Source: an uncultured Planctomycetota bacterium (GTDB taxonomy: Bacteria; Planctomycetota; Planctomycetia; Gemmatales; Gemmataceae). From it: a DNA stretch of 64,000 nt. A program made the translations under genes and the position numbers. Shown one piece after another: positions 6,461 through 63,765 of this stretch (positions are counted from its first letter, which is position 1; every line of letters begins with the position of its first letter). The notes below the pieces were generated by a model that was not told the DNA's origin, did no database searches, and was given only the letters and a program-made list of their open reading frames with translations. Location: positions 352,001-416,000 of the forward strand of contig CAWKHF010000001.1 in NCBI GenBank assembly GCA_963849325.1, read 5' to 3'.

Positions 6461-6649
6461 CGCCCCCGCTGGCCGGTTTTCTCTCGTCCCTCTCTTTTGC
6501 CTCAAGCGTCTGGGCAGGTGGGACGATAGAGGAAGAATGGCGGATACCCGGCCGTGCCGGACGGGTGCCGCGCTGGGCATAGACACATTGAAGTGGCGAC
6601 GAGAATCGGGTATGAGGCGCGCGAATCTTACGTTCCGGTGAAGACAATC

Positions 6650-8116: not shown

Positions 8117-8236
8117 GCGGCCGCGCCCTTTGTCCCCATTTCGCCGCCGCGGCGCGGTTCCACCTTGATTCGCCGGCGCGGGATGGTAGCCTGGAGACTA
8201 CTGGGAATCCCCTGTCTCCGTGGGACGGCGATCATC

Positions 8237-8614
8237 ATGACGGACGAATCGAAACAGAACCAATGCTTCCACATCGAACGGCACGGCGACATCGCCATCA
8301 TCACGCCGTCGCCGGAAGTGGAGAAGATGGCGGAGAACCTCATGGAGCAGGCGGCCCTGATGGTGCTGGCGCCGCTGCGTTCCGATCCGCCGGCCGGACT
8401 CATCTTCGACCTCAGCCGCGTCGATTACGTCGGCTCGGTGTTTCTGTCGTTCCTGCTGCGCTGCCACAAGCGCGTCAAGGAGCACGGCAGCGAGGTCGTG
8501 GTCGCCGGCGCTTCGCACCGCGCCCGCGAGCTGTTGCACATGACCGCGCTGGATACGCTGTGGGCGCTGTACGACACCCGCGCCGAAGCCCTGGCCGCCC
8601 TGACCGGAGATTGA
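8237..8614 (+). CDS. STAS-domain anti-sigma factor antagonist
   Basis: LIFDLSRVDYVGSVFLSFLLRCHKRV...LLHMTALD. Confidence 0.85.
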   Translation: MTDESKQNQCFHIERHGDIAIITPSPEVEKMAENLMEQAALMVLAPLRSDPPAGLIFDLSRVDYVGSVFLSFLLRCHKRVKEHGSEVVVAGASHRARELLHMTALDTLWALYDTRAEALAALTGD

Positions 8615-8622
8615 CTCCCTTC

Positions 8623-8681
8623 GTTTCGCCGCGACGCGCAGTGGAGCGCGCGACAGTCTCCGCTGCGCGTCACGGCGAAAC
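8623..8681. repeat. Palindromic repeat family C (degenerate)
   Basis: GTTTCGCCGCGACGCGCAG...CTGCGCGTCACGGCGAAAC. Confidence 0.75.
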
Positions 8682-8709
8682 AGCCCTCGCCGAACAGAGT
8701 TAGAAGCTA

Positions 8710-9762
8710 ATGCAGAAACCCCCTCTCGGCCCCGGCCGACCTTCCTTCCACGGCGCCTTTCAGCACATTCACGACGACGCGGCCACGGACGATCGGCAGC
8801 AGATCGGCATCGAACAGTTGGCCCAGCAGATCCGCGAGACGGCCGACAAGCTCATCCGCGACGGCGCCATGCGCGGCGACGTCAAACTGCTGAGCACGGC
8901 GCTGAAGGAGCTGCGCTACGCCCTGAAAATCTTCACGCCCTATCGACATCTGCGCAAGGTGACGGTGTTCGGCTCGGCGCGTCTGCCGTCGAGCAACCCG
9001 GCTTACCTGCAAGCGGTGGAGTTCAGTCAGCGCATGGCCGAGGCCGCCTGGATGGTCATCACCGGCGCGGCCAGCGGCATCATGGAGGCCGGACACGTCG
9101 GCGCCGGCCGCGAAAAGAGCATCGGCGTCAACATCCTGCTGCCCTTCGAGCAGGAGGCCAACCCCATCATTCGCGGCGACCTGAAGCTGATGCACCTGAA
9201 ATACTTCTTCACGCGCAAGCTGCTGTTCGTCAAGGAATCCGACGCCGTCGCTCTCTTCCCCGGCGGCTTCGGCACGCAGGACGAATGCTTCGAGGTGCTG
9301 ACGCTGGTGCAGACGGGCAAAAGCCATCTTTTTCCGATCGTCATGGTGGACGAAGCGGGCGGCGATTACTGGGCGCGCTGGCGCGAGTACATCACCGATG
9401 AGCTGCTGAGCCGCCAACTGATCTCGCCGGCCGACCTGTCGCTGTTCAAAGTCACCGATTCGGTGGACGAGGCGGTGGCGGAGGTGTTCCACTTCTATCG
9501 CGTCTATCACAGCATGCGCTACGTCCACGGCGACCTGGTGCTGCGCTTCCAGCACAAGCTATCCGACGCGCTGCTGGAACGACTGCGCGACGAGTTCGCG
9601 GACATCCTCGTGGCCGGCACCTTCGAGCAGACCGAGGCGCTGCCAGAGGAGGCCAACGACACGCACATCGCCCACCTGCCGCGCCTGCGTTTTCGCTTTG
9701 ATCGCCGCAGTCTGGGACGGCTGCGACAGATGATCGACGCCATCAATCAATCGGCTGATTAG
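8710..9762 (+). CDS. LOG family (TIGR00730-like Rossmann fold) protein
   Basis: [35 protein letters not shown]. Confidence 0.9.
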
Positions 9763-9879
9763 CAGATTTGGATTGTCGTCCCATCCATTTTCTCCTTGCC
9801 GTTCTTGCCCGGGCGCGGGATCATCGAAGCGTGTCCGGGATGGATGACCCGGTTGACGGCTCGCGCGTCTGGATCTTCG

Positions 9880-10464
9880 ATGAACACGACCTCGCTCAGC
9901 TTGCTCGATCGCCTCAAGCGTGCCCGGCCGGATTCCACGGAATGGCACAAGCTCCAGGACATCTATCTGCCGTTGATCCGCCACTGGTTGTCACGCCTAC
10001 CCGGATTGCACGATGAGATGGAGGATCTGACTCAGGAGGTGCTCGTCGTCCTCTTCCGCGAACTGCCGTCGTTCGAGCATCGTTTCCACGGTGCGTTCCG
10101 CGCCTGGCTGCGCCAGATCGCGGTCAACCGGACGAGAGCCTTTCTCAAGGCCAGGGGAAGGCGTCCCACGGCGGGCGCCGGCGCGGAGACCGACCGGCTC
10201 CTCGCCCAGCTGGAAGATGCCAACAGCGAGTTGGCCCGGCAGTGGGACCGCGACCACGACAAGCACGTCATCGACAAACTGCTCGCCGTCGTCCAGGTGG
10301 ACTTCGAGGCCAATACCTGGCAGGCGTTCACGCGCTTCGCCCTGGACGGCCAGCCGGCCGCGCGCGTGGCCGAGGAATTGGGCATGACGGAAAGCGCCGT
10401 CATCAAGGCCAAGTCCCGAATCCTCAAACGCTTGCGCGAAGAGGCCGGAGCATTGTTGGACTGA
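9880..10464 (+). CDS. ECF RNA polymerase sigma factor
   Basis: TTSLSLLDRLK, EDLTQEV, FRAWLRQIAVN, VAEELGMTESAVIKAKSRILKRLR. Confidence 0.92.
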   Translation: MNTTSLSLLDRLKRARPDSTEWHKLQDIYLPLIRHWLSRLPGLHDEMEDLTQEVLVVLFRELPSFEHRFHGAFRAWLRQIAVNRTRAFLKARGRRPTAGAGAETDRLLAQLEDANSELARQWDRDHDKHVIDKLLAVVQVDFEANTWQAFTRFALDGQPAARVAEELGMTESAVIKAKSRILKRLREEAGALLD

Positions 10465-10570
10465 GCGCACCTTTTCGCGTCCGGTCGGCTCGACATGCGG
10501 ACTTTCTCTTGGGAGGGCCGCGCGGACAACGCGCCGGCCGCGTCGATTGGTTGCCACGAAGGAGCCTGCG

Positions 10571-13395
10571 ATGGAAGCACGTCCCGTCACGCACCCGTCC
10601 GCCGACGCCCTGCAGGCGTTCGGCCTGGGCCAAATGGACGATGCCGCCGCCTCGGGGATCATGAGCCATCTGGACAGCTGCCCCCAATGCCGCCAGGCGG
10701 TGGCGTCCTTGTCCGGCGACGACTTTCTCCATCGGCTCCGTCAGGCGCGCACTCCGAGCGCCACGCCGGCGCCCGCCAAAGCCCTGTCCCCCTCGGTCGC
10801 CCCCGGCGCCAAGCCGCCCGGCCGGCCGACCACTCTGCACAACTTGCCGCCCGAATTGGCCGAGCATCCGCAGTATGACGTCCTCCGCGAACTGGGACGC
10901 GGCGGCATGGGCGTCGTCTACCTGGCCAAGAACAAGATGATGGACCGCCTGGAAGTACTCAAGGTGGTCAACAAGACGTTGATCGATCGACCCGGCGCCG
11001 TCGAGCGCTTCCTGCGCGAAATCCGCTCGGCGGCCAAGATCAATCACGTCAACGTCGTCACCGCCTACAGCGTCTTGCAACAGGGCGAAGTGCTGGCCTT
11101 CGCCATGGAGTACGTGGAGGGCGAGGATCTCGCCGCGCTGGTGAAATCGCGCGGCCCGCTGCCGATGCCGTACGCTTGCTACTACATCCAGCAAGCGGCC
11201 TTCGGCTTGCAGCACGCTTTCGAGAAGGGCATGGTCCACCGCGACATCAAGCCGCAAAACCTGATCCTGGCCCGCGAGGGCAACAAACACGTCGTCAAGA
11301 TACTCGACTTCGGCCTGGCCAAGGCCACGCGCGAGAAGGCCGACGACACCGGACTGACCGGCGAGGGTCAGATGCTGGGCACGCCCGATTACATCGCTCC
11401 GGAGCAGATGCTGGACGCGGCCAAGGCCGACATCCGCGCCGACATCTACAGCCTGGGCTGTACGTTGTACTATCTGCTGGCCGGTCGTCCGCCCTTCCGC
11501 GGATCGAGTTTGGGGGCGGTGTTGATGGCTCATCAGACGCAGGAGGCCAAGCCGCTGAATTCGCTTCGTGCCGAGGTGCCGGAAGAGTTGACGGCGGTGG
11601 TGCGCAAGATGATGGCCAAGACGCTGGCCCAGCGCTATCAGACGCCGATGGAGGTGGTGCAGGCGCTCCGTCCGTTCGTCAAGCAAGGGCCGCCCGCGGC
11701 GAAGTCGAAGTCGTCGCCGGAGGAGGCGGCCGGGGTGCCGGCCGCGAAGCCGGCGATCCGGAAAGTCGCGCGCGGCGAGCGCTCGATTGCGCCAACAAGG
11801 GCGGATGGACCGGAAGCGCAGCCGGCCGAGGCCTCCTGGGAAGCGCTGACGGAGGGCGGCATCATCTCCGGCGCATCGCGGCGAAGTGCGGCGGCACGCG
11901 GACGCCGGCCGCCGGCGTCGTGGAAGAAATGGTCGATCGGCGGCGGCATCGGCGTCTTTCTTCTCGTGCTGTTGGGCATGTGGGCCAGCGGCGTGTTCCG
12001 AGTGAAGACGGCGAACGGCACGATTGTGCTGGAGAACGTGCCGGCCGACGCTGAGGTGCTGGTGGACGGCGCGACGGTGACGCTCCAGGCCGGCGATGGC
12101 AAGACCGTCACGGTCGCCGTCGCGCGGGGAAAAAGCACCAATTGCAGGTGAAAAAGGAGGGGTTCAAGGTCTTCGGCCAGGAAGTGCAAATCGACGCCGG
12201 CAGCCGTGTACCTATCCGCGTGACTTTGCAGCCGGCGTCCCCGCCGCCCGGAAAGCCGCAGCCTCCGGCCCCCCAGCGCGCGACGGAAGACAAGGGCTTC
12301 GTGTCGCTGTTCAACGGCAAGGACCTGACGGGGTGGAAAGCCCATCCGGAGGCGGCGGGTGACTGGAAGGTGGAGAACGGTATTCTCATTGGCCGCGGCC
12401 CGAAAGTGAGCCACCTCTACAGCCAGCGGGACGACTATGCGGATTTCCATCTTCTGGTGGAGGCGAAGATCAATCAGGGGGGAAACAGCGGCGTCCTTTT
12501 CCACAAGGCATTTACTCCGGACTGGACGCGCGGCTACGAGGCCCAGATTGATAGCAGCAGCCACAAGTTCAAGACCGGCACCCTCTACGTCAAGGCAGCG
12601 CCCGGTGTCGGGATTGAGAAAGTGCTGGTCCCGGTCGATACCTGGTTCACCCAGGAAGTGATCGTCCAGGGGAACCACATTCTCCTCAAGATTGACGGGG
12701 TGACGACGGTGGATTTCGTTGACGCGGACAATACCTGGCCCAGCGGCCACATCGCCCTGCAAGTGTTTGACAAACCGACCGTTGTCCAATTCCGTCGCGT
12801 TGAGATCAAGGAACTGTCGCCTTCCGCTCCGAGCGCGACGGGCTTCGTCCCCTTGTTCAACGGCAAGGATCTGACCGGCTGGAAGACGCATCTCACGCAG
12901 CCGGGCAACTGGCGCGTCGAGAAGGGCGTTCTCCTCGGTTCCGGTCCCGCCGACAGTTATCTCTACACGGATCGCGGTGATTACAAGGACTTTCACTTGC
13001 GCGTCGAAACGCGGATCAACGACGGCGGCAACAGCGGCGTATGCTTCCGTACTCTGTTCGGCCCTTGGTTCCCCGCGGACAATCCGCGGTTTCTTCTCGG
13101 TTACGAGGCCCAGATCAACAGCACGCACACAGACCACTTTAAGACCGGAAGCTTGTATGCGTTACCAGGTGGCGTCCTGGTCAGCAACCGCGAAGCGCCG
13201 ACTCGGCCCGGCGAGTGGTTCACGTTGGAGGTGATCGCGGAGGGAAACCACATCGTCCTCAAGGTGGATGGCAAGACGACGGTGGACTACACGGACGAGA
13301 AGCGGTTGTACAGCAGCGGCCACATCGCCTTGCAGCAGTTTGAACCGCAGACGGTGGCGGAGTTCCGCAAGATCGAGATCGAGGAACGGAAGTAG
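10571..13395 (+). CDS. Ser/Thr protein kinase with N-terminal zinc-finger anti-sigma-like motif, TM helix and two DUF1080 domains (frameshift near 12130)
   Basis: HLDSCPQC; LGRGGMGVVY, HRDIKPQN, DFGLAK, GTPDYIAPEQ; TM IGGGIGVFLLVLL; two LFNGKDLTGWK...GNSGV...GHIALQ repeats in ORF 12142..13395. Confidence 0.88.
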
Positions 13396-52322: not shown

Positions 52323-52367
52323 AAAAAGAAAAGGCCAGAGCGGGCCTGTGTAAAGCCCTCCCTGGCC
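52323..52367 (-). terminator. Intrinsic terminator at the end of the core Tad transcript
   Basis: Minus strand GGCCAGGGAGGGC...GCCCGCTCTGGCC then TTTTCTTTTT. Confidence 0.65.
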
Positions 52368-52374
52368 CGTCGTT

Positions 52375-52460
52375 AGTTCTGAGTTCTGAGTTCTGAGTTC
52401 TGAGTGAAAAACGACAACTAGCGTCTTTCACTCAGAACTCAGAACTCAGAACTCAGAACT
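52375..52460. repeat. Inverted heptamer cassette (AGTTCTG)x4 / (CAGAACT)x4
   Basis: Arms end in GAGTGAAA...TTTCACTC around a unique spacer. Confidence 0.92.
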
Positions 52461-52466
52461 TTGGGC

Positions 52467-53201
52467 TTACCGGCCAGCTCCGGCTCCGCCGCCGGTGCCG
52501 GTGCCGGACCCGCCGGAAACATTGGCGCCGCCGGTGCTACCCATGTTGCCGCCCATGCCGCCCATGCCGCCGCCCATGCCGCCGCCCATGCCGCCGCCCA
52601 TGCCGCCGGCCATGCCGCCCATGCCGCCCATGCCGCCACCCATGCCGCCGCCCATGCCACCCATCATGGGTAGACCGCCCATGAAGCGGAAGTACATCTG
52701 CGACACACTCTGGTTGACCGGCGTAGACGCCAGGTCCACCTGGGCCGGGTCATGCACGACGATATGGAACGCCAGCGGTCGGCCGGCGGTCTGGGCCGCC
52801 AGGTACGCCTGCACGGCCGCGATCCGTCGTCCGTCCAGCGTCTGCCGCATCTCGACCAGCTTCTCCGGCACCGTCTGATCGTAGACCAGATCCTGAGCCG
52901 TCTGCAGATACAACGCCGTGTCGGGGCACGGCCGGCGTCGCGCCAGGTTGGCCAGGCGCTCCAGCCCCCCGGTCGTCAGCTTGTCCGTACCCGGCTCGAA
53001 GTAGTAGTTCCAAACCGTCTGATCGAGCACGTGTCCGTTCTGCACCTGCGGCGCGATGGCGGCGTTGAGTTCCTGACGCGCCATGTAGTTGTAGCGCATC
53101 GGATAGCACGGATCGACACAGGTATCCGGCAGACAGCCCAGGCCGGCCGCCGACACGACGCCGCACAGGACGGCCGCCGACTTGTTGATGAATCCTTTCA
53201 T
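52467..53201 (-). CDS. Putative lipoprotein with Gly/Met-rich tail, directly after tadC
   Basis: AGLGC lipobox-like, VDPCYP..QVQNGHVLDQTVWNYYF, (GGM)n tail. Confidence 0.75.
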   Translation of the reverse strand: MKGFINKSAAVLCGVVSAAGLGCLPDTCVDPCYPMRYNYMARQELNAAIAPQVQNGHVLDQTVWNYYFEPGTDKLTTGGLERLANLARRRPCPDTALYLQTAQDLVYDQTVPEKLVEMRQTLDGRRIAAVQAYLAAQTAGRPLAFHIVVHDPAQVDLASTPVNQSVSQMYFRFMGGLPMMGGMGGGMGGGMGGMGGMAGGMGGGMGGGMGGGMGGMGGNMGSTGGANVSGGSGTGTGGGAGAGR

Positions 53202-53221
53202 CGTCCTTCACTCCTTTTTCA

Positions 53222-53310
53222 AGTTCTGAGTTCTGAGTTCTGAGTTCTGAGTGAAAAAACAATCCACTTGCTTCTTTCACTCAGAACTCAGAACTCAGAA
53301 CTCAGAACTC
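53222..53310. repeat. Inverted heptamer cassette (AGTTCTG)x4 / (CAGAACT)x4
   Basis: Same architecture as 52375, different spacer. Confidence 0.92.
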
Positions 53311-53313
53311 TAC

Positions 53314-54264
53314 TTACTTCATCATCGTCTTCATGATGCTGATGGCCGCCGGCCCCACGAGGACCACGAAGATCCCCGGGAAGATGAACAGCACCAGCGG
53401 GAAGATCAACTGCACCGCCGTCTTGGCGGCCTTCTCCTCGGCCAACTGCTTGCGCCGCGTCCGCATCGAATCGGACTGCACGCGCAGCGCCTGGGCGATG
53501 CTCGAGCCGAAACGATCGGCCTGGATGAGGATGGCCGCCAGGCTGCGCACGTCATCGACGCCGGTGCGCACGCCCAGGTCGTGCAGCACCTCGCGGCGCG
53601 GCCGGCCCATCTGCAGCTGGAAGTTGGCCAGCGAAAACTCCTCGGCGATCACCTTGGCGTGGTCCTTCATCTCGTCGCACACCTTGCGCATGGCCGCGTC
53701 CAGGCCCAGGCCGCTCTCCACGCACACCACCAGCAGGTCCAGGGCGTCCGGCAGGGACAGGAAGATTTCCTCCTGGCGCTTCTTGCGCAGGAACCACAGC
53801 ACCAGGCTGGGCAGGTAAAAGCCGATGCCGCCGAAGATGCCGATCGGCTTCAGCGCCGCCATCGTGAAGCCGTGCTTGGGCAAGAAGATGGCCAGCGCCC
53901 AGCAGCAAGAAGCCGACCAGCACGGCCAAGCGCAGGCCGAGGTAGACCGCCACCGCCGAATCGCTGCGGAAGCCGGCGTTGGCCAGCTTGATCTTCAGCT
54001 CCGATTGCTCCAGCTCCGTCTGCGGCATCAGCGGCCCGGACAGGGCCTTGGCCGTCTCCATGACGCCCTGGAAGCGTTCCTTCTTCAGCTTGGGGTCCTC
54101 GATCTCGGCCAGCGAGGCCGGCCGGCTCGATGCGGTCCAGCCGCTCCTGGGCGCGGCTGTTGCGGTTGGAGATCATGCGACAGGACGGCGAAGACGCCGG
54201 CCACGAGCCCGCCGAACACCAGCAGCGGGATCATTTCCTGTAAGCCGACTAGGGCAAAGACCAC
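53314..54264 (-). CDS. tadC: Tad pilus assembly protein TadC (T2SS F family; frameshifts)
   Basis: KLANAGFR, LPDALDLLVVCVESGLGLDAA, LIQADRFG, AEEKAAK..LIFPLVLFIFP. Confidence 0.9.
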
Positions 54265-54282
54265 GACGCACCTCCCACTTGA

Positions 54283-54414
54283 GCAATCAGCAATCAGCGA
54301 TCAGCAATCAGCAGCCCGTTCTCAACGATTACCGATGAAATCGACTTTTCGCATCTCTCAGCGTGAAAAACTTTACGCCGTCTTCGCTGATCGCTGATCG
54401 CTGATCGCTGACAG
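54283..54414. repeat. Inverted heptamer cassette (CAGCAAT/CAGCGAT)n / (GCTGATC)n
   Basis: GCAATCAGCAATCAGCGATCAGCAATCAGC ... GCTGATCGCTGATCGCTGATCGCTGA. Confidence 0.85.
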
Positions 54415-54417
54415 CTT

Positions 54418-55383
54418 TTACACCTTGATGTTGACGATCTTGCGGATCACCAGCGCCCCGAGGATCTGGGCGATGATGGCGGCGACGCTCATCTTCTTGC
54501 CCAGCTCGGTCGTCCACAGCGACTCGACGTAGTCCGGCTTGGCGTTGAGCATGAAGCCGAACAGGGCGAACGGCAGGGCGATCAGCACGACGCCGCTGAG
54601 CCGGCCCTCGCCGGTCAGCGCCTTGACCTGGCCGAGGATGCGGAAACGCTCGCGGACGACGTAGCCGATCTTGTCGAGGATCTCGGCCAGGTCGCCGCCG
54701 GTCTGCCGCTGGATGGCGACCGAGGTGACGAAGAAGCGCAGGTCCAGGTTGGGCACGCGCTCGCACATGGCTCGCATGGCCTCCTCGATGGGGATGCCCA
54801 GGTTCTGCTCCTCGAAGACGCGGCCGAACTCGTCGGCGATGGGCGACGGCATCTCCTCGGCGACGACGTGCATGCCGGCGCCGAGGCTGTGCCCGGCCCG
54901 CAGGCGCCGGGCCACCAGCTCCAGGGCGTCGGACAGCTGGGCGGCGAACTTCTTCAGGCGAGCGCGCCGCTTGTTCCACAGCCAGACCCACGGCAGGGCG
55001 AACATCAGCAGGCCGTTGAGCGGCGCGAAGTAGACCGGCACCTTGACCAGCACGGCTGGCCGTCGCCCCGACCAGCGGCCAGCAGCAGGCCGATGCCGAA
55101 CAGCGTGCTCGGCTTGATGTGGCAGTCGGCCTGCTCGAACAGCCTCTGTCGGCGCTGAGGAACTTCGGCGTAATCGCCTCCAGGAAGTTCTTCTTGTCGC
55201 CCTCGAAGGCGCGTCTTGCGCAGGATGTCCTGCGCCTGATCGTGCCTCGCGGCTGCGCTTGCCGACCAGCATGTCCAGCCGCGTCGCCGTCTGCGGCGCG
55301 TTGTCGCGGAACACGAAGGCCAGCAGGCCGACCAGGGCCGCCACCGCCATGAAGACCATCGCCGAGATCAGCACGGGTGTCAT
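54418..55383 (-). CDS. tadB: Tad pilus assembly protein TadB (frameshifts)
   Basis: QLSDALEL..LRAGHSL, EQNLG, IQRQTGGDLAEIL, VKALTGEGRLSG. Confidence 0.9.
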   Translation of the reverse strand: MTPVLISAMVFMAVAALVGLLAFVFRDNAPQTATRLDMLVGKRSREARSGAGHPAQDAPSRATRRTSWRRLRRSSSAPTEAVRAGRLPHQAEHAVRHRPAAGRWSGRRPAVLVKVPVYFAPLNGLLMFALPWVWLWNKRRARLKKFAAQLSDALELVARRLRAGHSLGAGMHVVAEEMPSPIADEFGRVFEEQNLGIPIEEAMRAMCERVPNLDLRFFVTSVAIQRQTGGDLAEILDKIGYVVRERFRILGQVKALTGEGRLSGVVLIALPFALFGFMLNAKPDYVESLWTTELGKKMSVAAIIAQILGALVIRKIVNIKV

Positions 55384-55388
55384 GTTTC

Positions 55389-55508
55389 AGTTCTCGAGTT
55401 CTGAGTTCTGAGTTCTGAGTTTCGAGACCGGGTTCGGAGCTGAGGACTGCGCGATAAACACGCGGTTTGTCTCTTTTACTCAGAACTCAGAACTCAGAAC
55501 TCAGAACT
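55389..55508. repeat. Inverted heptamer cassette (AGTTCTG)n / (CAGAACT)x4
   Basis: Between tadA and tadB. Confidence 0.9.
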
Positions 55509-55515
55509 TTGGATT

Positions 55516-56894
55516 TCAGTCGCGCAACAGCACGCGCTCCTGGAACAGGTTGCGACGGCAGCTTGATGCCGGCCGCCTCCAGGCGGCTGACGAAGGACGG
55601 CCGCACGCCGGTCGCCTCGAACTGGCCGTAGGCGCGGCCGTTCTGGTCGATGCCCAGCTGCTTGTAGCGGAAGACCTCCTGCATGATGATCATGTCCTGC
55701 TCCATGTTCATCACCTCGGTGATCGACGTCACCTTGCGCGGGCCGCCCTGCAGGCGGTTGGCCTGGATGATGAGGTCGACCGCCGAGGAGATCTGCTGCC
55801 GCATGGCCTTCATGGGCAGCTCCATGCCGGCCATCATGATCATCGTCTCCAGCCGGGCCTGGGCGTCGCGCGGCGTGTTGGCGTGCAGCGTGGTCATCGA
55901 GCCGTCGTGGCCGGTGTTCATGGCCTGGAGCATGTCCAGCGTCTCGCCGCCGCGGCACTCGCCGATGATGATGCGCTCCGGCCGCATACGCAGGGCGTTG
56001 CGCACCAGGTCGCGCGTCGTCGACCGCGCCCTTGCCCTCGATGTTCGGCGGCCGCGTCTCCAGGCGGACGACGTGGTCCTGCTGCAGCTGCAGCTCGGCC
56101 GCGTCCTCGATGGTGACGATGCGCTCGTCGTGCGGGATGAAGCTCGACAGCGTGTTGAGCAGCGTCGTCTTGCCGCAGCCGGTGCCGCCGCTGATGACGA
56201 TGTTCAGCCGGGCCTTGATGCACGCCTCCATGAGCATCGCCATCTCCGGCGTGAACGCCTTGTAGTTGAGCAGGTCTTCCAGCTTCAGCGGGTTGGCGCC
56301 GAAGCGGCGAATGCTCATCGACGGGCCGTCCAGGGCCAGCGGCGGGATGATGGCGTTGACGCGGCAGCCGTCCGGCAGGCGGGCGTCCACCATCGGCGAC
56401 GTCTCATCGACGCGCCGGCCGACCTTGGACACGATGCGGTCGATGATCTGCAGCAGGTGGTCGTTGTCGCGGAACTTGACGTCGGTCTTCTCCATCTTGC
56501 CGCGGCGCTCGACGTAGATCTTGTGCGGCCCGTTGATGAGGATGTCGCTGATGGTCGGGTCCTTGAGCAGCACCTCCAGCGGGCCGAAGCCGAACGTCTC
56601 GTCGAGCACCTCGTCGATGAGGCGTTCGCGCTCCATGCGGTTGAGCAGCGGGTTTTCGGTGTCGCACAGGCGCTCGACGACCAGGCGGATCTCGCGGCGG
56701 AGCGTGTCGCCTTCCAGGTCGCTGACGCGCGACAGGTCGAGCTTATCGACCAGCTTGCCGTGGATGAGGCGCTTGAGCTCCTCGAAGCTCTTGGTGCCCT
56801 GGCGGTCGCCGCCCATGCCGGACATCGAGCCGCCCAGCCGGCTGACGGTGCCGTTGTTGCTCAGCCCGCTCAGGCCGCGTTGCAAACGGGACAT
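55516..56894 (-). CDS. tadA: Tad pilus assembly ATPase CpaF/TadA (frameshifts near 56020 and 55555)
   Basis: [59 protein letters not shown]. Confidence 0.95.
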
Positions 56895-56924
56895 GATGCA
56901 TACTCTCCGCTGTCATTCAACTAT

Positions 56925-56986
56925 GGCGAGCGGGGGGCGTCAGCCCCCTGTTGCTTCGGAACAGGGGGCTGACGCCCCCGCTCGCC
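56925..56986. repeat. Palindromic repeat family B
   Basis: GGCGAGCGGGGGGCGTCAGCCCCCTGTT...AACAGGGGGCTGACGCCCCCGCTCGCC. Confidence 0.9.
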
Positions 56987-57000
56987 GGGAGTTTTGCCTC

Positions 57001-58203
57001 TCAGCGTCGCGAGAACAAGGCCCATCGACTGGCCTTGTCCTTGACGGCCGGTTGCAGCTGTTTGCCGGACAGGGCCTGGGCCAGGCCGGCGATAGCTCTG
57101 CTGCACCTTGCTCTTGGGCGCGTGCAGCAACAGCGGCACGCCGTGGTTGCGCGACTCGATCATCAGCTTGGCGTCGTTGGGCACCTGCCAGTAGATCGGC
57201 TTGCCGATGGTCTCCTCGGCCTTCTTCAGGGTGATGTCGTTGTCGCTGCCGACGCGGTTGAGGACGATCTTGCACCTTGTCGGCCAGGCTCTCGTCGGCC
57301 CCCAGGGTCAGCAACATGCGGACCACGTTGCGCAGGCTGGACAGCTCGAGCTGGGCGACCAGCAGGATCACGTCGGCCATGCGCAGGGCCGTCACGTCGG
57401 TCGGCGAGAAGCTCTTGCTCAGGTCGAGGACCAGGTGCGTATAGCTGGCCCGCAACAGGCCGATGACGCGCTGCAGGTGGTCCTCGCGGATCAGGCTGAC
57501 GTCTTCCATCTGCACCGGGTGCGGCAACAGCGACAGGCCGGAGGCGTGCTTGCTCAGCGAGCGCCGCAGGAAGTGCATGTCGAGGCGCTCGATGTTCAGG
57601 GCCACGTCGGCCAGGGTGTAGTCGGCCATCAGGTCGAGGGCGACGTCGGCGTCGCCCAGGGCCAGGTCGAGGTCGATGAGGGCGACGCTGTGCTCGGGTC
57701 CTGGGCCAGGGTGGCGCCGAGGTTGACGGCGAGGCTGGTGCAGCCGACGCCGCCGCGCGAGCCGAGGATGGCGACGACTTGCGACTCGGCCTCGAACCGG
57801 CGATTCGCTGCTGCCGCCTTCGCCGTTAGGCCGGCCGCGCTGCAGACGCTGCAGCGCCTTGAGCAAGTCTTCGAGCACGACCGGCACGGTCAGGAATTCG
57901 CGGGCGCCGTTGCGCAGCGCCTGCAAGATGGCCTGGCCGTCGCCGCGGGCGCTGATGGCCAGGATCGGCACTGCGGCGCCTCCGGCGTCAGCTGGGCGAT
58001 CAGGCAGCGCCTTGATCTGGTCGGAGTCCAGCGAGACGACGACCACGTCGGGGTTGGACTGCGCGATCACGTCGAGGAAGAACTCGTAGCGCGAGCACTC
58101 CGCCTCCAGCCAGACCGACTCCATGCCCAGCAGGACATTGCGCAGCTCCTCGCGGCGTGGAGTCGGAGGGATCGACGATCGCGATACGTTGCACGTCCCT
58201 CAT
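57001..58203 (-). CDS. cpaE: CpaE/TadZ (receiver-like + MinD-like domain; frameshifts)
   Basis: ILQALRNGAREFL, GSRGGVGCTSLAVNL, LIDLDLALGD, QLELSSLRN, PND. Confidence 0.88.
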
Positions 58204-58238
58204 GAGCACCACCGATTCTTGGTAACTATCTTCCATCT

Positions 58239-58301
58239 GGCGAGCGGGGGGCGTCAGCCCCCTGTTCCGAAGTAACAGGGGGCTGACGCCCCCCGCTCGC
58301 C
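58239..58301. repeat. Palindromic repeat family B
   Basis: Same arms as 56925. Confidence 0.9.
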
Positions 58302-58307
58302 GGGTTT

Positions 58308-60061
58308 TCACCGCGTTCCCGCCGTGGCGGACAGATCGTTCGTCGGAACCCAGCCGGATTCTTCTCGACCCAGCGCGGCCGGCCGCACCTGATTGTCGGT
58401 CCTGGTCTCGGCCGCCGCCGTCGCCGCCGGGGCCGGGGTAGCTGGCGCCGAGGTCGTCGGCGTCGGCGTCGAGGTCGCCGGCAGGGGCGCTGGGACCGAC
58501 ATCAAGCTCGCCGGCGGCTGCATCGTCGCGGCGGGTTCCGTCGGGCCGAAGCCGACCGGCAGCTCGCCGCTGGGGACACCACAGCCGCCGACGCCACAGT
58601 TGCCTCGGCCGGCACACGGGAACACCGCGGCCGACGGACTGCTCTTGTAGGGCGGCACATAGTGAAGTTTCTGCCATGCCTGGCGCGGTCCCCGCGGTGC
58701 CTCGATGATTCCTTCCAAGAATAGCTCAAAATCATCGGGCCGGCGCGTTTCCTCGCCCGGCAGCATTTTCGGCCGTTGATCGCACGATTCGGCATCGACC
58801 AGCCAGGGCGTGACGATGACCAGCACTTCCTGCTCGGTATCCTGGTACTGTGTGCTGCGGAAGAACGTGCCCAGGTAGGGCAGGTCGCCCAGGCACGGCA
58901 CCTTACTGGTGGTGGCCTGCGTCTCGTGCTGGATCAGGCCGCCGAGGACGAAGGTCTGGCCGGCCTCCAGCTCGACCGTCGTGTTGACGTAGGTGATCGT
59001 GCGGCCGGGGACGGACGAGCCGCCGACGTTGGCCAGGCCGGACGCCTGGTCCAGGTTGCTGACTTGCGGCGCAACTTCCAGGTGGATACGGCCGTTACCC
59101 AGGACGATGGGGATGAAGCTCAACATGGTGCCGAACGGCAAGAACTGCACGCCGGTGCCGCCGAAGCTGCCGGTCTGCGGGACGGCCTGCTGGCCGCCGA
59201 CGTTGAAGTAGGCGGGCCGGCCGCTCAGCGTCACCAGGCGCGGCTCGGCCAACAGCTTCGACATGCCGTTTTGCCGTAACGCCTCCAGGAAGTTCTGGAA
59301 GCCCCAGGCGTTGTGGACGATGCCCAGCAGCAGGTTGGTGGCCGAGTTGGGAGCGCCTGGATGTTGCCCAGCGAGGTGAACGTACCGCCCGTGCCGCCAA
59401 CCGCGCCCGGGTTGGTGGCCGCCCCACCGACGGTGCTGCCGGCGGCGAAGCCGCTGCCGCTGCCCAAAATGTTGAAGGTCAGGTTGCGCAGGTCGGAACG
59501 CGACACCTGGACGATGATGACGTCCAGCTGCACCTGCTGCACGCCGCCGACGCGCATGCCGTCGATGTACTTGAAGCCGACCGACTGCACCAGGCCGCGG
59601 ATGATGGCCACGTCCTCGGCTCGCGGGACCGTGCCGGTCAAGATGACCGTATTGTTCGAGGTCGGAATGGCCATGATGTGGGCCGTCGGCACGGCACGCT
59701 GCAGCTGCGTGCGCAAGTATTCGATGTCCGCCTGCACGATCACCTCGTAGGTCTCCTTGCTGCCGTCGTCGCCCTCCAGCTCGAGGCGCGTGACGTCCGG
59801 CTGCTGGCCGATGACCATAATCGTCGTCGGGTCGCCCACGATGGTACGGATGTTGATGGCGTTTTCTTTGGGATTGGTGACGGTACGAATCTTCTGCTTG
59901 TGGGACATCTGCAGCTTGACCGTGCCGTTGATGGGGACGATCAAGGCGCTGGGCTTGGGCGAAGGCTCCTGCGCGGCGGCGGGTCGGGGCCCGCCTGGGA
60001 CAATCAGGGCGACAATCATGCCCGCCAACAGGAGCGGGGGCCTGCCGATAGAGCGGTGCAT
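58308..60061 (-). CDS. cpaC: Tad secretin CpaC/RcpA (frameshift near 59355)
   Basis: QQVQLDV..VSRS, LLAEPRLVTLSG, FG..LSFIP, LEVAPQVSNLD, TTVELEAGQTFVLGGLI, VIVTPWLV. Confidence 0.9.
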
Positions 60062-60120
60062 CCATTCACCTCGTCAGTAAGAGCGGGCGGGAGTCAGCCA
60101 CCCGTCAGGGTCCGTACTGT

Positions 60121-60185
60121 TCGTTTAGCCGCGACGCGCAGCGGAGCGCGGCCGCCGCGCTCCGCTGCGCGTCGCGGCTAAACGA
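60121..60185. repeat. Palindromic repeat family C
   Basis: TCGTTTAGCCGCGACGCGCAGCGGAGCGCGG...CCGCGCTCCGCTGCGCGTCGCGGCTAAACGA. Confidence 0.9.
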
Positions 60186-60210
60186 GGGTTTCGACAGCGC
60201 AAACTGCCTA

Positions 60211-61305
60211 TCATTTGCCGTGCCCGCCGCGGGCGCCATTTCGAGCGGGGCCGGCAGGGGGAGCGATCGGGTCGTCGGGCGAAAGGACCGGCCCGGCGAG
60301 CCGGCGCGGCGGGGCATCTTCCCCGTTGCGGTCCAGGCCGCCGTTGGTCCACACCTTCTCCGTGGGATCCAACGTGAAAACGGCCTTCTGCACGTATTCG
60401 CCGTTGATGACGGTCATGGTGTGCGTCTTGGGCGGCGCCGGCGCTTCCGGCTCCACCTCGGGCGTCTTCTGCACCACCGGCGTCGGAGCGGTCTGCGGCG
60501 GGGGCGGCGGTGGGGCCGGCGGCAGCGGCGGCAGCGGCGGCACCGGCGGAGCGCTCGCCGTCTGCTGCCCATCATCATCGTCCTTGTTGCGGTTCTCGTG
60601 CATCGGCCGGCCGAGGTCGTCCCACTTCGAGCCGGGCAGGCGGACGATGCGCGTATCGTCGGGCGTCCGCAGCGTCAGCCGCAGCTCGCCCATCGACGCC
60701 GCCAGCGACAACCGCTGCGCCTCCTCCGGCGTGGCGGCCAGCGTCACGGTGCTGCCGAGCATGGACGTCGTTTGCGTATCGCGGGTCGAGTTGGTGTCCA
60801 CGGCCAGCACCAGCATGTTTTGCATGATGATCTTGGCCACCGACTCGTTGGCCCCGCCGCGCAGCGTGGACACCACGTCCACGCGCGAACCGGGCAGGAT
60901 GAATCCGCCGGCCAACGCCTCGGCGTTGACCTTCAGGGCGATGGCCCGCAGTCCCGAGGGCAGCTTGGCCAGCAGACCGACCTGTTCGGCGTTGACCAGC
61001 TTATCCGCCAGCACGTACTCGCCCTCGGTCAGCGCCTGGCTCAGCCGCTGGTTCTCCACTTCCTTCAGCTCCTTCAGCGCCTTCTTGGGCACCGCGCTCT
61101 CGGCGACGTCCTTTTCCTCGAAGTATTTCGCCGGGTCTTTGATCAGCACCCAGGCCGGCACTTTGCCCTTGGCCACCAGGATCTTGATCTTCGGCTCCTC
61201 GACCGTCGTGGTCGAGCGATCGGCCAGCAGGCGGCTGGTCATGTAGCTGGCCGCCAGGCCGCAGCCGACGGCCACGACCATCAGCATCATCGTCTTCGGT
61301 TTCAT
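60211..61305 (-). CDS. cpaB: Flp pilus assembly protein CpaB/RcpC
   Basis: N-terminal TM, SAF-like region, GLRAIALKV..GFILPGSRVDVV, QNMLVLAVD, TVTLAATPEEAQRL. Confidence 0.92.
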   Translation of the reverse strand: MKPKTMMLMVVAVGCGLAASYMTSRLLADRSTTTVEEPKIKILVAKGKVPAWVLIKDPAKYFEEKDVAESAVPKKALKELKEVENQRLSQALTEGEYVLADKLVNAEQVGLLAKLPSGLRAIALKVNAEALAGGFILPGSRVDVVSTLRGGANESVAKIIMQNMLVLAVDTNSTRDTQTTSMLGSTVTLAATPEEAQRLSLAASMGELRLTLRTPDDTRIVRLPGSKWDDLGRPMHENRNKDDDDGQQTASAPPVPPLPPLPPAPPPPPPQTAPTPVVQKTPEVEPEAPAPPKTHTMTVINGEYVQKAVFTLDPTEKVWTNGGLDRNGEDAPPRRLAGPVLSPDDPIAPPAGPARNGARGGHGK

Positions 61306-61324
61306 GGTGCATACCTCAAGGTCA

Positions 61325-61409
61325 GAGTTCCAAGTTCGGAGTTCTGAATTCTGAGTGAAAGCAGGGCAGACCTTCTTCACTCCGAACTCAGAACTCCGAA
61401 CTCCGAACT
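61325..61409. repeat. Inverted heptamer cassette (degenerate AGTTCKG / CMGAACT)
   Basis: AGAGTTCCAAGTTCGGAGTTCTGAATTCTGAGTGAA...TTCACTCCGAACTCAGAACTCCGAACTCCGAACT. Confidence 0.85.
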
Positions 61410-61511
61410 ACCGTTTCATTCGACCGCCCGTGACGCGGAACTTCAACTTTATCGCTTGTAGCAAGCCTTCCGAGTTTGCCCAGGGAATCGGTTTGCCCGA
61501 CTCCCGCAGTT

Positions 61512-62120
61512 TCACCCTAGGCACCGTGCAGGTAAATCAGGTAACTGACGAAGCCCAGACACAAGCGGGATCCCGTAGGGCAGCAAGTGCATGCGCGGCT
61601 TGCGCTGGGCGGCCTTGTCCGCCGCCTTGCCCACACCCGAGCCGAGCAGATCGCGGAGGATCTCCGCCGAGTTGGCCATGTTGGTCTTCAGCTGACCGCG
61701 AAGGGCGATCATGCCCAGGGCCAGGACGCCGCCGATGAGGGCCGCCAGACAGAAGGCGGAAACCAGGATCCATCCGGCGCCGGGATGGATCTCGGTGGCC
61801 CGCATGCCATAGAAGGAGCCGACCCAGGCGCCGAAGCCCATCTGCATCTTGACGTCGCCGGCGCCCATGCCGCCGATGGCGTACAGCGGAAACAGCAACA
61901 GAAAGCCCAGGCCGGTGGCGAGCAGACTGGCGCCGAAGCCGCCGGAGCCGGTGGACTCCAGCCAGCCGCAGCTGTGCAGCGCTCCCAAGGCCCAGCCGCT
62001 CAGGATCAGCGGAAACGTCAGCCAGTTGGGCACCTTCAGTTTCCAGCCGTCGATGACGGCCGCCACGATCATCGCCGCGCACACGAACGCCAGCGGCCAA
62101 TTGTTGAGAATGAAGTGCAT
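61512..62120 (-). CDS. cpaA: A24 prepilin peptidase CpaA/TadV
   Basis: AVIDGWKLKVPNWLT, GGMGAGDVK, LPYGIP. Confidence 0.92.
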   Translation of the reverse strand: MHFILNNWPLAFVCAAMIVAAVIDGWKLKVPNWLTFPLILSGWALGALHSCGWLESTGSGGFGASLLATGLGFLLLFPLYAIGGMGAGDVKMQMGFGAWVGSFYGMRATEIHPGAGWILVSAFCLAALIGGVLALGMIALRGQLKTNMANSAEILRDLLGSGVGKAADKAAQRKPRMHLLPYGIPLVSGLRQLPDLPARCLG

Positions 62121-62254
62121 GAGACGGCATCCTCTCAGACGAGTGTCACCCGATCGTCAGGGAACGCGGCAAGCCGCGGCACCGTCGGGCGCCGCGGCTC
62201 ACCGTTCGCCGCCGGTCGAACCCGGCCCGGCGTTCCACTCCAGCCCTCGACCGT

Positions 62255-62440
62255 TCAGCTGCTGGTCTTGCCGACCTGCGTGCTGACGTAGCTGAAGGTG
62301 TTGTTGGCGTTGCTGCCCAGCGTGGTGATGGCGGTGATGCACACCACGATAATCAGGGCCAGCATGACGGCGTACTCGACCGCGGTCGGGCCGTCTTCGT
62401 TCTTGACAAAGTTCACCAGGCCGTTGGCAAACTTACGCAC
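62255..62440 (-). CDS. flp: Flp type IVb pilin, copy 4 in transcription order
   Basis: NEDG^PTAVEYAVMLALIIVVCITAITTLG. Confidence 0.95.
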   Translation of the reverse strand: MRKFANGLVNFVKNEDGPTAVEYAVMLALIIVVCITAITTLGSNANNTFSYVSTQVGKTSS

Positions 62441-62497
62441 GAGTCTCTCCTTTGTGGATGAAAGCTAAACCCCGTAGGTCCCGTCCCCCCAAAACGC

Positions 62498-62683
62498 TCA
62501 GCTGCTGGTCTTGCCGACCTGCGTGCTGACATAGCTGAAAGTGTTGTTGGCGTTGCTGCCCAGCGTGGTGATGGCGGTGATGCACACCACGATAATCAGG
62601 GCCAGCATGACGGCGTACTCGACCGCGGTCGGGCCGTCTTCGTTCTTGACAAAGTTCATCAGGCCGTTGGCAAACTTACGCAT
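62498..62683 (-). CDS. flp: Flp type IVb pilin, copy 3
   Basis: Mature part identical to copy 4. Confidence 0.95.
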   Translation of the reverse strand: MRKFANGLMNFVKNEDGPTAVEYAVMLALIIVVCITAITTLGSNANNTFSYVSTQVGKTSS

Positions 62684-62741
62684 GTGTCTCCCCTTTGGTG
62701 GATGAAAGTTAAACTTGGGCGAAGCCCGTCCCCCGAAACGC

Positions 62742-62927
62742 TCAGCTGCTGGTCGCGCCGACCTGCGTGCTGACATAGCTGAAAGTGTTGTTGGCGTTGC
62801 TGCCCAGCGTGGTGATGGCGGTGATGCACACCACGATAATCAGGGCCAGCATGACGGCATACTCGACCGCCGTCGGGCCGTCCTCGTTCTGCAAGAAACT
62901 CACCAGACCGTTCGCAAACTTACGCAT
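62742..62927 (-). CDS. flp: Flp type IVb pilin, copy 2
   Basis: Mature part differs by one residue (VGATSS). Confidence 0.95.
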   Translation of the reverse strand: MRKFANGLVSFLQNEDGPTAVEYAVMLALIIVVCITAITTLGSNANNTFSYVSTQVGATSS

Positions 62928-63024
62928 GGGTCTCGACTTCCTCACAAGAAACCACAGACGAATTGAACGGACGGGAGACCGGATACCGCATCCGGTTGAG
63001 TGCATCCTTCCCCGAATGGGTTGC

Positions 63025-63216
63025 TCAGGAACTCTTGGCGCCGGCAGCGGCGTTGAGGGCGACGTTGCTGAACGTGCCGTTGGCGTTGCTGCCCAGCGTG
63101 GTGATGGCCGTGATGCATACCACGATGATCAGGGCCAGCATGACGGCGTACTCGACCGCCGTCGGGCCGTCCTCGTCGCGCAGGAATTGTTTCGTCCTGG
63201 CGATCCACTTGTTCAT
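63025..63216 (-). CDS. flp: Flp type IVb pilin, copy 1 (divergent C-terminus)
   Basis: DEDG^PTAVEY...NANGTFSNVALNAAAGAKSS. Confidence 0.95.
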   Translation of the reverse strand: MNKWIARTKQFLRDEDGPTAVEYAVMLALIIVVCITAITTLGSNANGTFSNVALNAAAGAKSS

Positions 63217-63376: not shown

Positions 63377-63467
63377 CCTCATCCCTTCGGGAGCCTGGCG
63401 ACCCGCGAGGGGCCCATGGCTTTGCGTCCCCGCCTCGCGACGGGTTTGCCGGTATCGAGGATGAAGA
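63377..63467 (-). ncRNA. Cyclic di-GMP-I (GEMM) riboswitch upstream of the flp/tad operon
   Basis: Minus strand CTTCATCCTCGATACCGGCAAACCCGTC-GCGA-GGCGGGGACGCAAAGCCATGGGCCCC...GCCAGGCTCCCGAAGGGATGAGG. Confidence 0.92.
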
Positions 63468-63655: not shown

Positions 63656-63765
63656 TCCCCCTCTCCCCCGTACTCGGGAGAGAGGGGTTGGGGGTGAGGG
63701 GGTGCCGGGCGATGACTCTCCCCCTCACCCCCAACCCCTCTCTCCCGAGTACGGGGGAGAGGGGA
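63656..63765. repeat. Long palindrome (CCCCTCACCCCCAACCCCTCTC family)
   Basis: CCCCTCTCCCCCGTACTCGGGAGAGAGGGGTTGGGGGTGAGGGG ... CCCCTCACCCCCAACCCCTCTCTCCCGAGTACGGGGGAGAGGGG. Confidence 0.88.

Follow-up and report, generated by a model that had tools for sequence, protein, structure and literature searches.

Dispersed palindromic hairpins at the gene junctions of a Tad pilus operon in a soil planctomycete

The Tad/Flp pilus gene cluster of a soil planctomycete, and the large hairpins encoded at its gene junctions, are the subject of this paper. The cluster lies on the window's minus strand, the window being the whole stretch of 64,000 nucleotides (nt) that was analysed (G000:C1:352001-416000, G000 being this genome), and it extends from window position 63459 down to 52332. 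The G000 assembly comprises 8.16 Mb in 14 contigs and has a completeness of 84.7%. A hairpin is present behind flp1 and behind each of the following eight genes (62204 to 52375, minus strand). Between the riboswitch at the head of the operon and the terminator-like stem at its end there are 12 junctions, nine of which are filled by hairpins, eight by members of repeat families.

The Tad operon and its junction hairpins

The identity of the cluster as a Tad locus, proposed in an earlier note on this DNA, was borne out by Pfam matches to Flp_Fap (four times), Peptidase_A24, RcpC, Secretin, TadZ_N (weak), T2SSE and T2SSF (twice), and its gene order is common to genomes of the same genus, the same family and the same order. 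A c-di-GMP-I-GGC riboswitch aptamer was detected at the operon head (63385..63459; this and all further features of the operon are on the minus strand) by Rfam family RF03167, with 64.1 bits (gathering score 59) and an E-value of 1.6e-13. It precedes flp4, which comes first among the four flp genes, by about 170 nt. In four of the ten relatives' loci that were scanned (G007, G017, G016 and G006), an aptamer of the RF03167 clan is likewise located upstream of flp. The suggested control of the operon by cyclic di-GMP (c-di-GMP) is thus supported both by an aptamer above its gathering score in the 5' leader and by the clan members in relatives.

The four tandem flp pilin genes (62255..63216; Pfam Flp_Fap, E 1e-11 to 8e-11) are flp4 (63025-63216), flp3 (62742-62926), flp2 (62498-62683) and flp1 (62255-62440). 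They are followed by the cpaA/tadV prepilin peptidase gene (61512..62120; Pfam Peptidase_A24, E 1.6e-13), the cpaB/rcpC gene (60211..61305; RcpC, E 1.1e-25) and the cpaC/rcpA secretin gene (58308..60061; Secretin, E 4.7e-41), which has one frame break and consists of two coding segments in different frames. The cpaE/tadZ gene (57001..58203), also with frame breaks, was assigned from weak TadZ_N and Response_reg matches and from tblastn synteny with intact relatives. The tadA/cpaF ATPase gene (55516..56894) matched T2SSE over the first half of the profile only (E 4.3e-37); it contains a frameshift near residue 292, since residues 1-292 and 286-458 are matched in different frames by 30 of 30 relatives. 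Behind it are tadB (54418..55383; T2SSF, E 2.5e-17) and tadC (53314..54264), the latter with frame breaks and recognized by synteny and by a T2SSF match (E 7.2e-20) on the piece of open reading frame (ORF) at its C-terminal end. The last gene (52467..53201), found by tblastn synteny in the genus, family and order, encodes a lipoprotein-like protein with a long GGM-rich tail; the protein matched no Pfam family, and the tail is low complexity of the (GGM)n type. The position of this gene is kept from genus to order. A terminator-like stem with a T-run follows at 52332..52347 (consensus scan: AGGCCCGCTCTGGCCT then TTTCTTTTTC) and is the probable real end of the operon. Similar GGCCAGGGA...TCCCTGGCC stems are found 3' of the orthologous last gene in G004, G006 and G002.

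The frame breaks deserve a comment. Candidate breaks are common throughout G000 (1,641 genome-wide, or 2.0 per 10 kb), and the 11 kb of the Tad locus contain four. Given this frequency and an assembly of 14 contigs at incomplete coverage of the genome, the breaks probably stem from long-read indel errors in the assembly rather than from decay of the operon. Two side observations were made: metagenome contigs of relatives are without one base at 56021/56022 and at 55552 in tadA, and the assemblies of G002 and G007 resemble G000 in their frame breaks.

All nine junction structures listed in the earlier note are present at the places given there. RNA was folded on the transcribed strand, z-scores were calculated against 200 dinucleotide shuffles, and arms were counted as Watson-Crick matches. 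The eight large stems have 20-39 bp, folding energies of -59.0 to -71.3 kcal/mol and z-scores of -8.0 to -14.9, and none of their shuffles folded equally well. In the direction of transcription, the first of them is a degenerate heptamer-array hairpin of GTTCGGA/GTTCTGA units between cpaA and cpaB (61326..61409; 34-nt arms with 30/34 or 88% complementary; -59.0 kcal/mol, z -9.1), which belongs to the 60-copy family 4. Palindromes resembling repetitive extragenic palindromes (REPs) occupy the three following junctions. The one between cpaB and cpaC ('family C', 60121..60185) pairs over 32/32 bp with a 1-nt gap (-71.1 kcal/mol, z -11.1) and has 282 family copies; that between cpaC and cpaE ('family B', 58239..58301) pairs over 28/28 bp (-70.8 kcal/mol, z -12.7); and a second 'family B' copy (family 3) between cpaE and tadA (56925..56986) has a perfect core of 20 bp, or 27 bp with one bulge (-62.9 kcal/mol, z -11.3).

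Heptamer arrays occupy the rest. A GTTCTGA hairpin between tadA and tadB (55396..55508; 25-30-nt arms, 52-57-nt loop; -61.5 kcal/mol, z -8.7) starts 7 nt 3' of the tadA stop codon, and a CAGCGAT hairpin lies between tadB and tadC (54282..54416; 26-31-nt arms, 87-92% complementary, 73-nt loop; -71.3 kcal/mol, z -8.0). GTTCTGA x4 hairpins are found between tadC and the lipoprotein-like gene (53222..53310; 35-38 bp; -68.4 kcal/mol, z -13.3), 5 nt past the tadC stop codon and upstream of an AAGGAG ribosome-binding site, and 3' of the last gene (52375..52460; 38/39 bp; -70.4 kcal/mol, z -14.9), beginning 6-7 nt past the stop codon. Matches of these hairpins to Rfam microRNA precursors were far below the gathering scores and occurred on both strands, and were set aside as generic matches to long hairpins.

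The ninth structure is of a different kind. The flp1/cpaA stem-loop (62167..62204) is unique, with no dispersed family; its stem of 17 bp, some of them G-U pairs, folds at -36.7 kcal/mol (z -6.6), its Watson-Crick inverted-repeat score is only 9, and no U-tract follows it. It had been described as an 8-bp GCCGCGGC stem at 62173-62198; the stem is there, and its real fold is the larger one. This 17-bp stem behind flp1 is the only structure of the operon that could be a dedicated post-pilin attenuator. The statement that every junction carries a large hairpin holds for nine of the 12 junctions and fails for the three flp-flp gaps, in which no large hairpin was found (best inverted-repeat scores 7, 5 and 4); the flp2/flp1 gap folds no better than its shuffles (z +0.81).

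Hairpin families and junction occupancy across the genome

Hairpins were searched in the whole of G000 from 12-nt perfect inverted seeds with loops of up to 200 nt and extension with mismatches. The search yielded 2,266 inverted-repeat loci, of which 1,670 have at least 16 and 1,556 at least 18 paired bases. Families were defined by greedy clustering; single-linkage clustering was discarded as it merged unrelated families into one group of 757. The element at 60121-60185 belongs to a family of 282 GC-rich palindromes, and those at 58239-58301 and 56925-56986 share one family of 60 copies. The hairpins with GTTCTGA arms at 52375, 53222 and 61326 are members of another family of 60 copies, and that at 55396 falls in a sister group of four (64 in total). 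The element at 54282-54416 is a singleton, its unit being a rare second heptamer type with seven exact CAGCGAT runs in the genome. The family labels of the earlier note therefore stand (C with 282 copies; B with 60, two in the operon; GTTCTGA with 60 plus four, four in the operon), as does its observation that several unrelated families meet at these junctions; the families are dispersed genome-wide.

Many further heptamer units build the same kind of hairpin in G000. Exact heptamer runs in the whole genome peak at four units (82 runs of three, 155 of four and 42 of five). The 64 GTTCTGA copies likewise have a mode of four units per arm, together with a shared GTGAAAGA...TCTTTCAC centre and variable loops, and nearly all of them are paired into hairpins. 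Each arm of families B and C contains a small internal stem (GGGGG-CGTCAG-CCCCC; GCCGCG...CGCGGC), so that the whole, read from the sequence, would fit an inverted REP doublet. As a side observation, exact (GTTCTGA)x4 occurs in more than 110 genome stretches of Acidobacteriota, Chloroflexota, Bacteroidota, Cyanobacteria, Planctomycetota, candidate phyla and others; these are mostly plain tandem arrays, and a simple count found an inverted partner in five of the 80 examined.

Two described kinds of repeat can be recognized in these elements. The first comprises the REPs, bacterial interspersed mosaic elements (BIMEs) and REP doublets forming hairpins (REPINs) of Proteobacteria, with which families B and C share a high copy number (282 and 60 copies) and a GC-rich extragenic palindrome behind genes; the small internal stems of their arms may correspond to the doublet build of REPINs. 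They differ from the REPs of Proteobacteria in their planctomycete host and in sharing their slots with heptamer-array hairpins, a structurally different class. They also differ from the system of REPINs and REP-associated tyrosine transposases (RAYTs), as no flanking RAYT was found in the 84.7% complete G000 and the single Y1_Tnp match is cut off and flanked by another family. REPs were reported in Planctomycetes (PMC3733652); a literature search on repetitive extragenic palindromes of Planctomycetes yielded nothing on this genus or on Tad junctions.

The second kind comprises paired convergent heptamer arrays, which were described with GGGAATC units in Xanthomonas and GGGGA(C/T)T units in Nostoc; four is the preferred number of units there, and the arrays lie no more than 50 bp from stop codons (Rehm et al., 2015; PMC4692102). 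The arrays of G000 resemble these in their tandem 7-nt units with four preferred and in forming inverted, stem-loop-capable pairs that are intergenic, mostly between aligned genes and close to a stop codon. Unlike in those arrays, GTTCTGA and CAGCGAT lack a G-tract, many units coexist in one genome, and nearly all GTTCTGA copies are paired around one common centre. Since the four-unit peak occurs in mostly non-G-rich heptamers, the published G-quadruplex account of the four-unit preference cannot be general, and this argument would hold whichever explanation of the Tad hairpins is right. Two described kinds, REP/REPIN-like palindromes and paired heptamer arrays, are thus combined in these elements, which depart from them in three respects: no RAYT was found, the units are not G-rich and there are many unit types.

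Placement follows a simple rule. Hairpins with at least 18 matches are extragenic, with a midpoint inside coding blocks for only 62 of 1,556. Those in co-directional junctions (n = 885) lie close to the upstream stop codon (median 9 nt, quartiles 1 and 23) and at a median of 76 nt from the coding segment that follows, and the Tad copies obey the same rule.

For the occupancy analysis, coding segments were predicted with a home-made codon-usage log-odds caller, same-strand pieces less than 40 nt apart were merged and each gap was scored. The caller is crude and assembly frame breaks create false empty junctions, so the shuffle probabilities below are rough and clear in direction only. At 18 or more matches, hairpins fill 415 of 1,949 co-directional junctions on the minus strand and 510 of 2,176 on the plus strand, 342 of 966 convergent junctions and 157 of 961 divergent ones; 19-27% of the co-directional junctions that have a spacer are filled. 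With eight filled co-directional junctions in a row, the Tad operon has the longest such run of G000, the next longest being four (six at the 16-match threshold). When occupancy was shuffled over 3,744-4,617 junctions (2,000 shuffles per setting), a run of eight was reached with P = 0.0005-0.005 in nine seed settings, and the inverted-repeat score criterion gave P = 0.0005-0.026 (4,125 junctions, five thresholds from 11 to 20). The operon therefore exceeds the genome background, and occupancy equal to that background, which the earlier note had named, together with flat coverage, as the outcome that would refute its proposal, was not found.

Hairpin counts in 10-kb windows are near-Poisson, and the Tad region ties at eight with C5:310932, about five such windows being expected from a hand estimate. 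Window density was dropped as a measure, since it takes no account of orientation and a single gap may contain more than one hairpin, and the junction test was used instead. The other hairpin-dense stretches hold unrelated genes, including those for GNAT proteins, M16 peptidases, nuoA/B, aroE, prfA, prmC and a sigma54 activator. The genome has another tad-like locus, which is partial (G000:C12:1215500-1222400) and carries genes for a ParA-like protein, TadA, TadB, TadC and a Ser/Thr kinase. Within the window, a cluster of six co-directional genes on the plus strand (5303-13392) has five spacers of 136-229 nt in which the seed criterion detected no hairpin; the spacer before 8746 has a decayed copy of the 282-member family (inverted-repeat score 18), and relatives have hairpins at several of these sites.

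Turnover of hairpins in relatives and at unrelated junctions

The eight orthologous Tad junctions were compared in eight other genomes of the genus, a junction being counted as filled at an inverted-repeat score of at least 13. They are filled in 39 of 60 cases, mostly by different elements, as the earlier note had asked to be checked: the occupants are built from heptamer units such as ATTGATG, TAGTCCG, CCGCTAT, AGTGTTC and CGGTTTT, or belong to other REP-like families. Occupancy per genome ranges from 3/8 (G001 and G005) to 7/8 (G004), with 4/4 on a short contig of G009. Tad operons of other genera and of the sister family contain zero or one hairpin each by the seed criterion (at least 18 matches).

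Empty sites are informative. The tadC/lipoprotein spacer of G005 measures 14 nt and its cpaE/tadA spacer 6 nt, and at these two sites the eight other genus members have hairpins of 60-110 nt of at least five kinds. By this comparison the hairpins are insertions, which stretched tight junctions to about 100 nt. It was also considered that ancestral long spacers make the Tad operon permissive, and this idea was rejected for at least two junctions in view of the 6-nt and 14-nt empty states. With only three of eight junctions filled in two genomes of the same genus, and such short spacers in one of them, the operon evidently manages, as far as its sequence tells, without hairpins at the empty junctions of G005 and G001.

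The close pair G008 and G004 have an orthologous cpaC/cpaE hairpin of TCGGCAN-type heptamers (L013 5138-5213 and L014 5120-5193), in which several unit positions have changed in both arms together, with pairing kept in G008. The arms of this hairpin thus seem to evolve in concert. Taken with the missing bias towards G-U mismatches that is described below, these concerted changes fit a DNA-level process that matches the arms to each other, such as template switching.

Junctions of unrelated genes served as controls. These were junctions beside prfA, nuoB and an M16 peptidase gene, which were located in relatives by protein search and scored at the same threshold of 13; neighbourhood synteny was unusable for the purpose, since only about 3-4 kb downstream are syntenic in G004, G006 and G008. 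The following figures concern 10 hand-picked junctions with flanks of 240-270 nt instead of annotated gaps. For five control junctions with a hairpin in G000, 37 of the 43 counterparts in relatives are also filled, again with a change of family; for a sixth the figure is six of ten. For four junctions without a hairpin in G000, 14 of the 36 counterparts are filled. The Tad value of 39/60 falls within this range. Junctions therefore differ in a lasting propensity to have a hairpin while the occupant turns over, and as unrelated junctions persist with turnover as well, persistence is not special to the Tad operon.

A comparable pattern was reported for REPINs of Pseudomonas chlororaphis, where 20 spaces contain a REPIN in each of the 42 strains, 13 of these spaces mix REPIN types and 'they may be overwritten' (REPORTH preprint, bioRxiv 10.1101/2024.10.14.618302). 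In both cases the space stays filled while the type of element changes. The filled slots of this genus outlive their occupants, in a phylum with scant description of such repeats, and the empty sites of a sister species show the growth of spacers from 6-14 nt to about 100 nt.

Origin and possible roles of the junction hairpins

Based on these results, we lean, with modest confidence, towards the explanation that selfish or neutral palindromes fill persistent, overwritable slots near stop codons, and that the Tad operon offers and fills the most consecutive slots. The eight large hairpins would then be ordinary members of the intergenic palindromic-repeat population of G000, which appears to consist of two kinds, namely GC-rich palindromes of the REP/REPIN type and heptamer-array hairpins with arms of about four facing tandem 7-nt units. 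The elements insert or grow directly past stop codons and upstream of the next ribosome-binding site, and a filled junction stays filled across species while its occupant is replaced by another family, in the Tad operon and at unrelated genes alike. Since the ten short Tad genes each have their own Shine-Dalgarno site, nine slots would stand in a row, and nearly all are filled in this species. In the transcript controlled by c-di-GMP, the folding energies of the stems would be -59 to -71 kcal/mol, and any action as 3' exonuclease barriers, RNase III substrates or weak pause or stop sites would probably be a side effect. If the hairpins are only tolerated, the locus would be a natural example of an essential-looking operon loaded with perfect palindromes of 60-130 nt.

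Several findings weigh against this explanation. Uniform occupancy would seldom give a run of eight (P 0.0005-0.026), so something raises the hairpin propensity of the Tad junctions. Hairpin density in the Tad regions of five relatives pooled (22 in 52.1 kb) is about twice that of their sampled background (69 in 331 kb), and the second tad-like locus has three hairpins of three families within a co-directional run of five genes. There are 13 same-family pairs within 10 kb where shuffles give 5.3 +/- 2.2; the Tad operon, whose 9 kb contain four of the 64 GTTCTGA copies, accounts for six of the 13. The control junctions were drawn from hairpin-dense stretches and are no random sample, and the relatives are kin and not independent. 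The Tad hairpins of G000 itself have five G-U, no A-C and two other mismatches, a small number. Finally, no transposase could be tied to any of these hairpin families in G000.

The search for such an enzyme gave the following picture. No REP-flanked RAYT for families B and C was found in G000, and one could be missing from the 84.7% complete assembly. The only match to PF01797 (Y1_Tnp) scores 49.6 bits (C2:573643-573867), in an ORF that is cut off after the HUH motif. On either side of this ORF (G000:C2:573480-574100; L028 1340-1960) stand inverted sets of three small stem-loops (CCCAGCCCTTCAGGGCTGGG, GCCGCTTCAGCGGC and GCGGGCTTCAGCCCGC), which form a small dispersed family of their own, and over 1.5 kb separate the match from the nearest hairpins of the family types. 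The four Tad GTTCTGA copies have loops that differ from one another, and the closest loop relative of the tadC/lipoprotein copy is on contig C6, so these copies look like separate arrivals. Local duplication from junction to junction is unsupported for the same reasons, yet same-family clustering remains above the shuffles.

A role at the RNA level was examined through mismatches, because a stem selected as RNA should tolerate G-U but not A-C on the transcribed strand. No such bias was found among the hairpins of co-directional junctions genome-wide (194 G-U, 196 A-C and 229 other on the sense strand) or among the Tad hairpins of relatives (18 G-U, 14 A-C and 23 other). Recent insertions would carry no signal, so the test is weak evidence against selection and not proof. 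No T-run is present behind any of the eight stems, and the terminator consensus scan lists none of them whole; it returned only inner sub-stems of family B with T-poor tails, and the canonical site at 52332-52347. The eight hairpins are therefore not canonical terminators. A gene with an RNase III domain is present in G000 (PF14622, 107 bits), and the stems of 20-39 bp reach the approximately 20 bp that are needed, so cleavage of the Tad stems by RNase III is possible. Of 22 public RNA runs, each contained at most 0.13 of the sampled words; four runs, compared at 85% likeness, yielded nothing but fragments of relatives some 170-590 nt long, none of which usefully bridged junctions or showed RNA ends.

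The proposal that mobile hairpins were co-opted as punctuation of the operon is thus unsupported by the tests made and is at best a minority reading: filled sites persist with turnover of families equally at the controls, two genomes of the same genus have only three of eight junctions filled, one of them with spacers of 6 and 14 nt, and there is no G-U bias on the mRNA strand. One form of it, which we regard as rather unlikely, is that structure and not sequence is selected. Each Tad cistron would gain from a strong 3' hairpin of any family. By way of RNase III cleavage, a block to exonucleases or a cascade of termination, the hairpins would divide or attenuate the polycistron under riboswitch control and so set the ratios of pilin to machinery. 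This would agree with the Tad run being the longest in the genome, with the filling of cpaE/tadA in eight of nine genus members by different families and, if the small CGGTTTT hairpins present in G001 and G005 are included, of tadA/tadB in nine of nine, with stems long enough for RNase III and the presence of a gene with an RNase III domain in the genome, and with the five G-U mismatches and no A-C in the operon of G000. It is opposed by the sparse occupancy of G001 and G005 and the short spacers of the latter, by the persistence of unrelated control junctions at least to the same degree (37/43), by the absence of G-U bias in relatives' Tad hairpins (18 versus 14) and genome-wide (194 versus 196), and by stems without U-tracts.

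A 'termination cascade' of this sort, attributed to Kram and co-workers in 2008, reportedly exists at the tad locus of Aggregatibacter actinomycetemcomitans, with a promoter upstream of flp and internal sites that lower downstream expression. The Tad hairpins of G000 differ from it in lacking U-tracts and in being copies of dispersed repeats and not dedicated sites. A further precedent is REP325 of the Escherichia coli yjdMN operon, which limits downstream read-through and stabilises the upstream message, thus acting as terminator and stabiliser in one (Harris et al. 2026, bioRxiv 10.64898/2026.03.23.713779). REP325 is likewise a repeat palindrome between genes of one operon, and it represents the most likely kind of side effect here; unlike REP325, which concerns one junction and has experimental evidence, the present case concerns eight consecutive junctions. 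If it is true that the hairpins shape the transcript, the operon would provide a simple model of selfish repeats turned into expression dials in a riboswitch-controlled pilus operon.

A broader version, which we consider doubtful, holds that selection throughout the genus acts on the placing of a strong hairpin 3' of a gene and leaves its sequence free, so that interchangeable families would act as modular 3' punctuation, with the Tad operon as the extreme case. At the same low level of confidence, the riboswitch transcript would be cut by RNase III and exonuclease barriers into nine separately stabilised messages. The early genes of phage T7 are separated by RNase III processing sites, which are conserved, dedicated, bulged stems. 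The Tad stems are similar to those sites in being long intercistronic stems of a polycistron that could potentially be cut into single-gene messages, and dissimilar in being near-perfect copies of repeats that differ between sister species. Should this version be true, it would be a bacterial counterpart of the transcript punctuation of phage T7 and mitochondria, made of selfish DNA.

That the Tad operon is an insertion hot spot, where strong or conditional transcription or the replication context exposes single-stranded DNA, so that neither selection nor mere tolerance would account for the hairpins, seems less probable still. The local density points in this direction (eight hairpins in about 9 kb compared with 1.9 per 10 kb in G000, and the roughly twofold excess in the five relatives), as do the four GTTCTGA copies with different loops, which suggest repeated independent arrivals, and transposases of the IS200/IS605-type Y1 class are known to act on single-stranded DNA (PMC6006769). 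Against it, no active transposase for these families was found in G000, the other dense stretches contain unrelated housekeeping genes, and in the near-Poisson 10-kb counts two windows hold eight hairpins where the hand estimate expects about five. Chance alone, by which the operon would be the extreme tail of about 1,600 randomly scattered hairpins, spotted post hoc, is very improbable, because P is at most 0.007 in 13 of 14 parameter settings and both the relatives and the paralogous tad locus are hairpin-rich too, even though window counts are near-Poisson with C5:310932 also at eight, P rises to 0.026 at the most lenient threshold, and the false empty junctions of the caller shorten runs elsewhere and lower the background.

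Two further elements of the locus should be mentioned. The tadB/tadC spacer contains a conserved element of about 75 nt (54313-54385, minus strand; core ...TCTCATGCCGAGAGATGCGAAAAGTCGATGTAATCGGTAAAC...) in nine of nine genus members examined, and it was absent from two other genera examined. In G000 and G002 it makes up the loop of a heptamer-array hairpin, the unit being CAGCGAT in the former and CAGTGGT in the latter. Its consensus fold is weak (-9.1 kcal/mol, with compensatory change in two of 16 pairs of a nine-spacer alignment), and it may serve to bind a protein, encode a very short upstream ORF or act as a leader of tadC. The other is a perfect palindrome of 45 bp from a C/G-tract family with 58 copies (GGGGAGAGGGGTTGGGGGTGAGGGGG...). 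It is located at 63658-63764 of the window, between the operon and its divergent neighbour and a short way upstream of the riboswitch leader.

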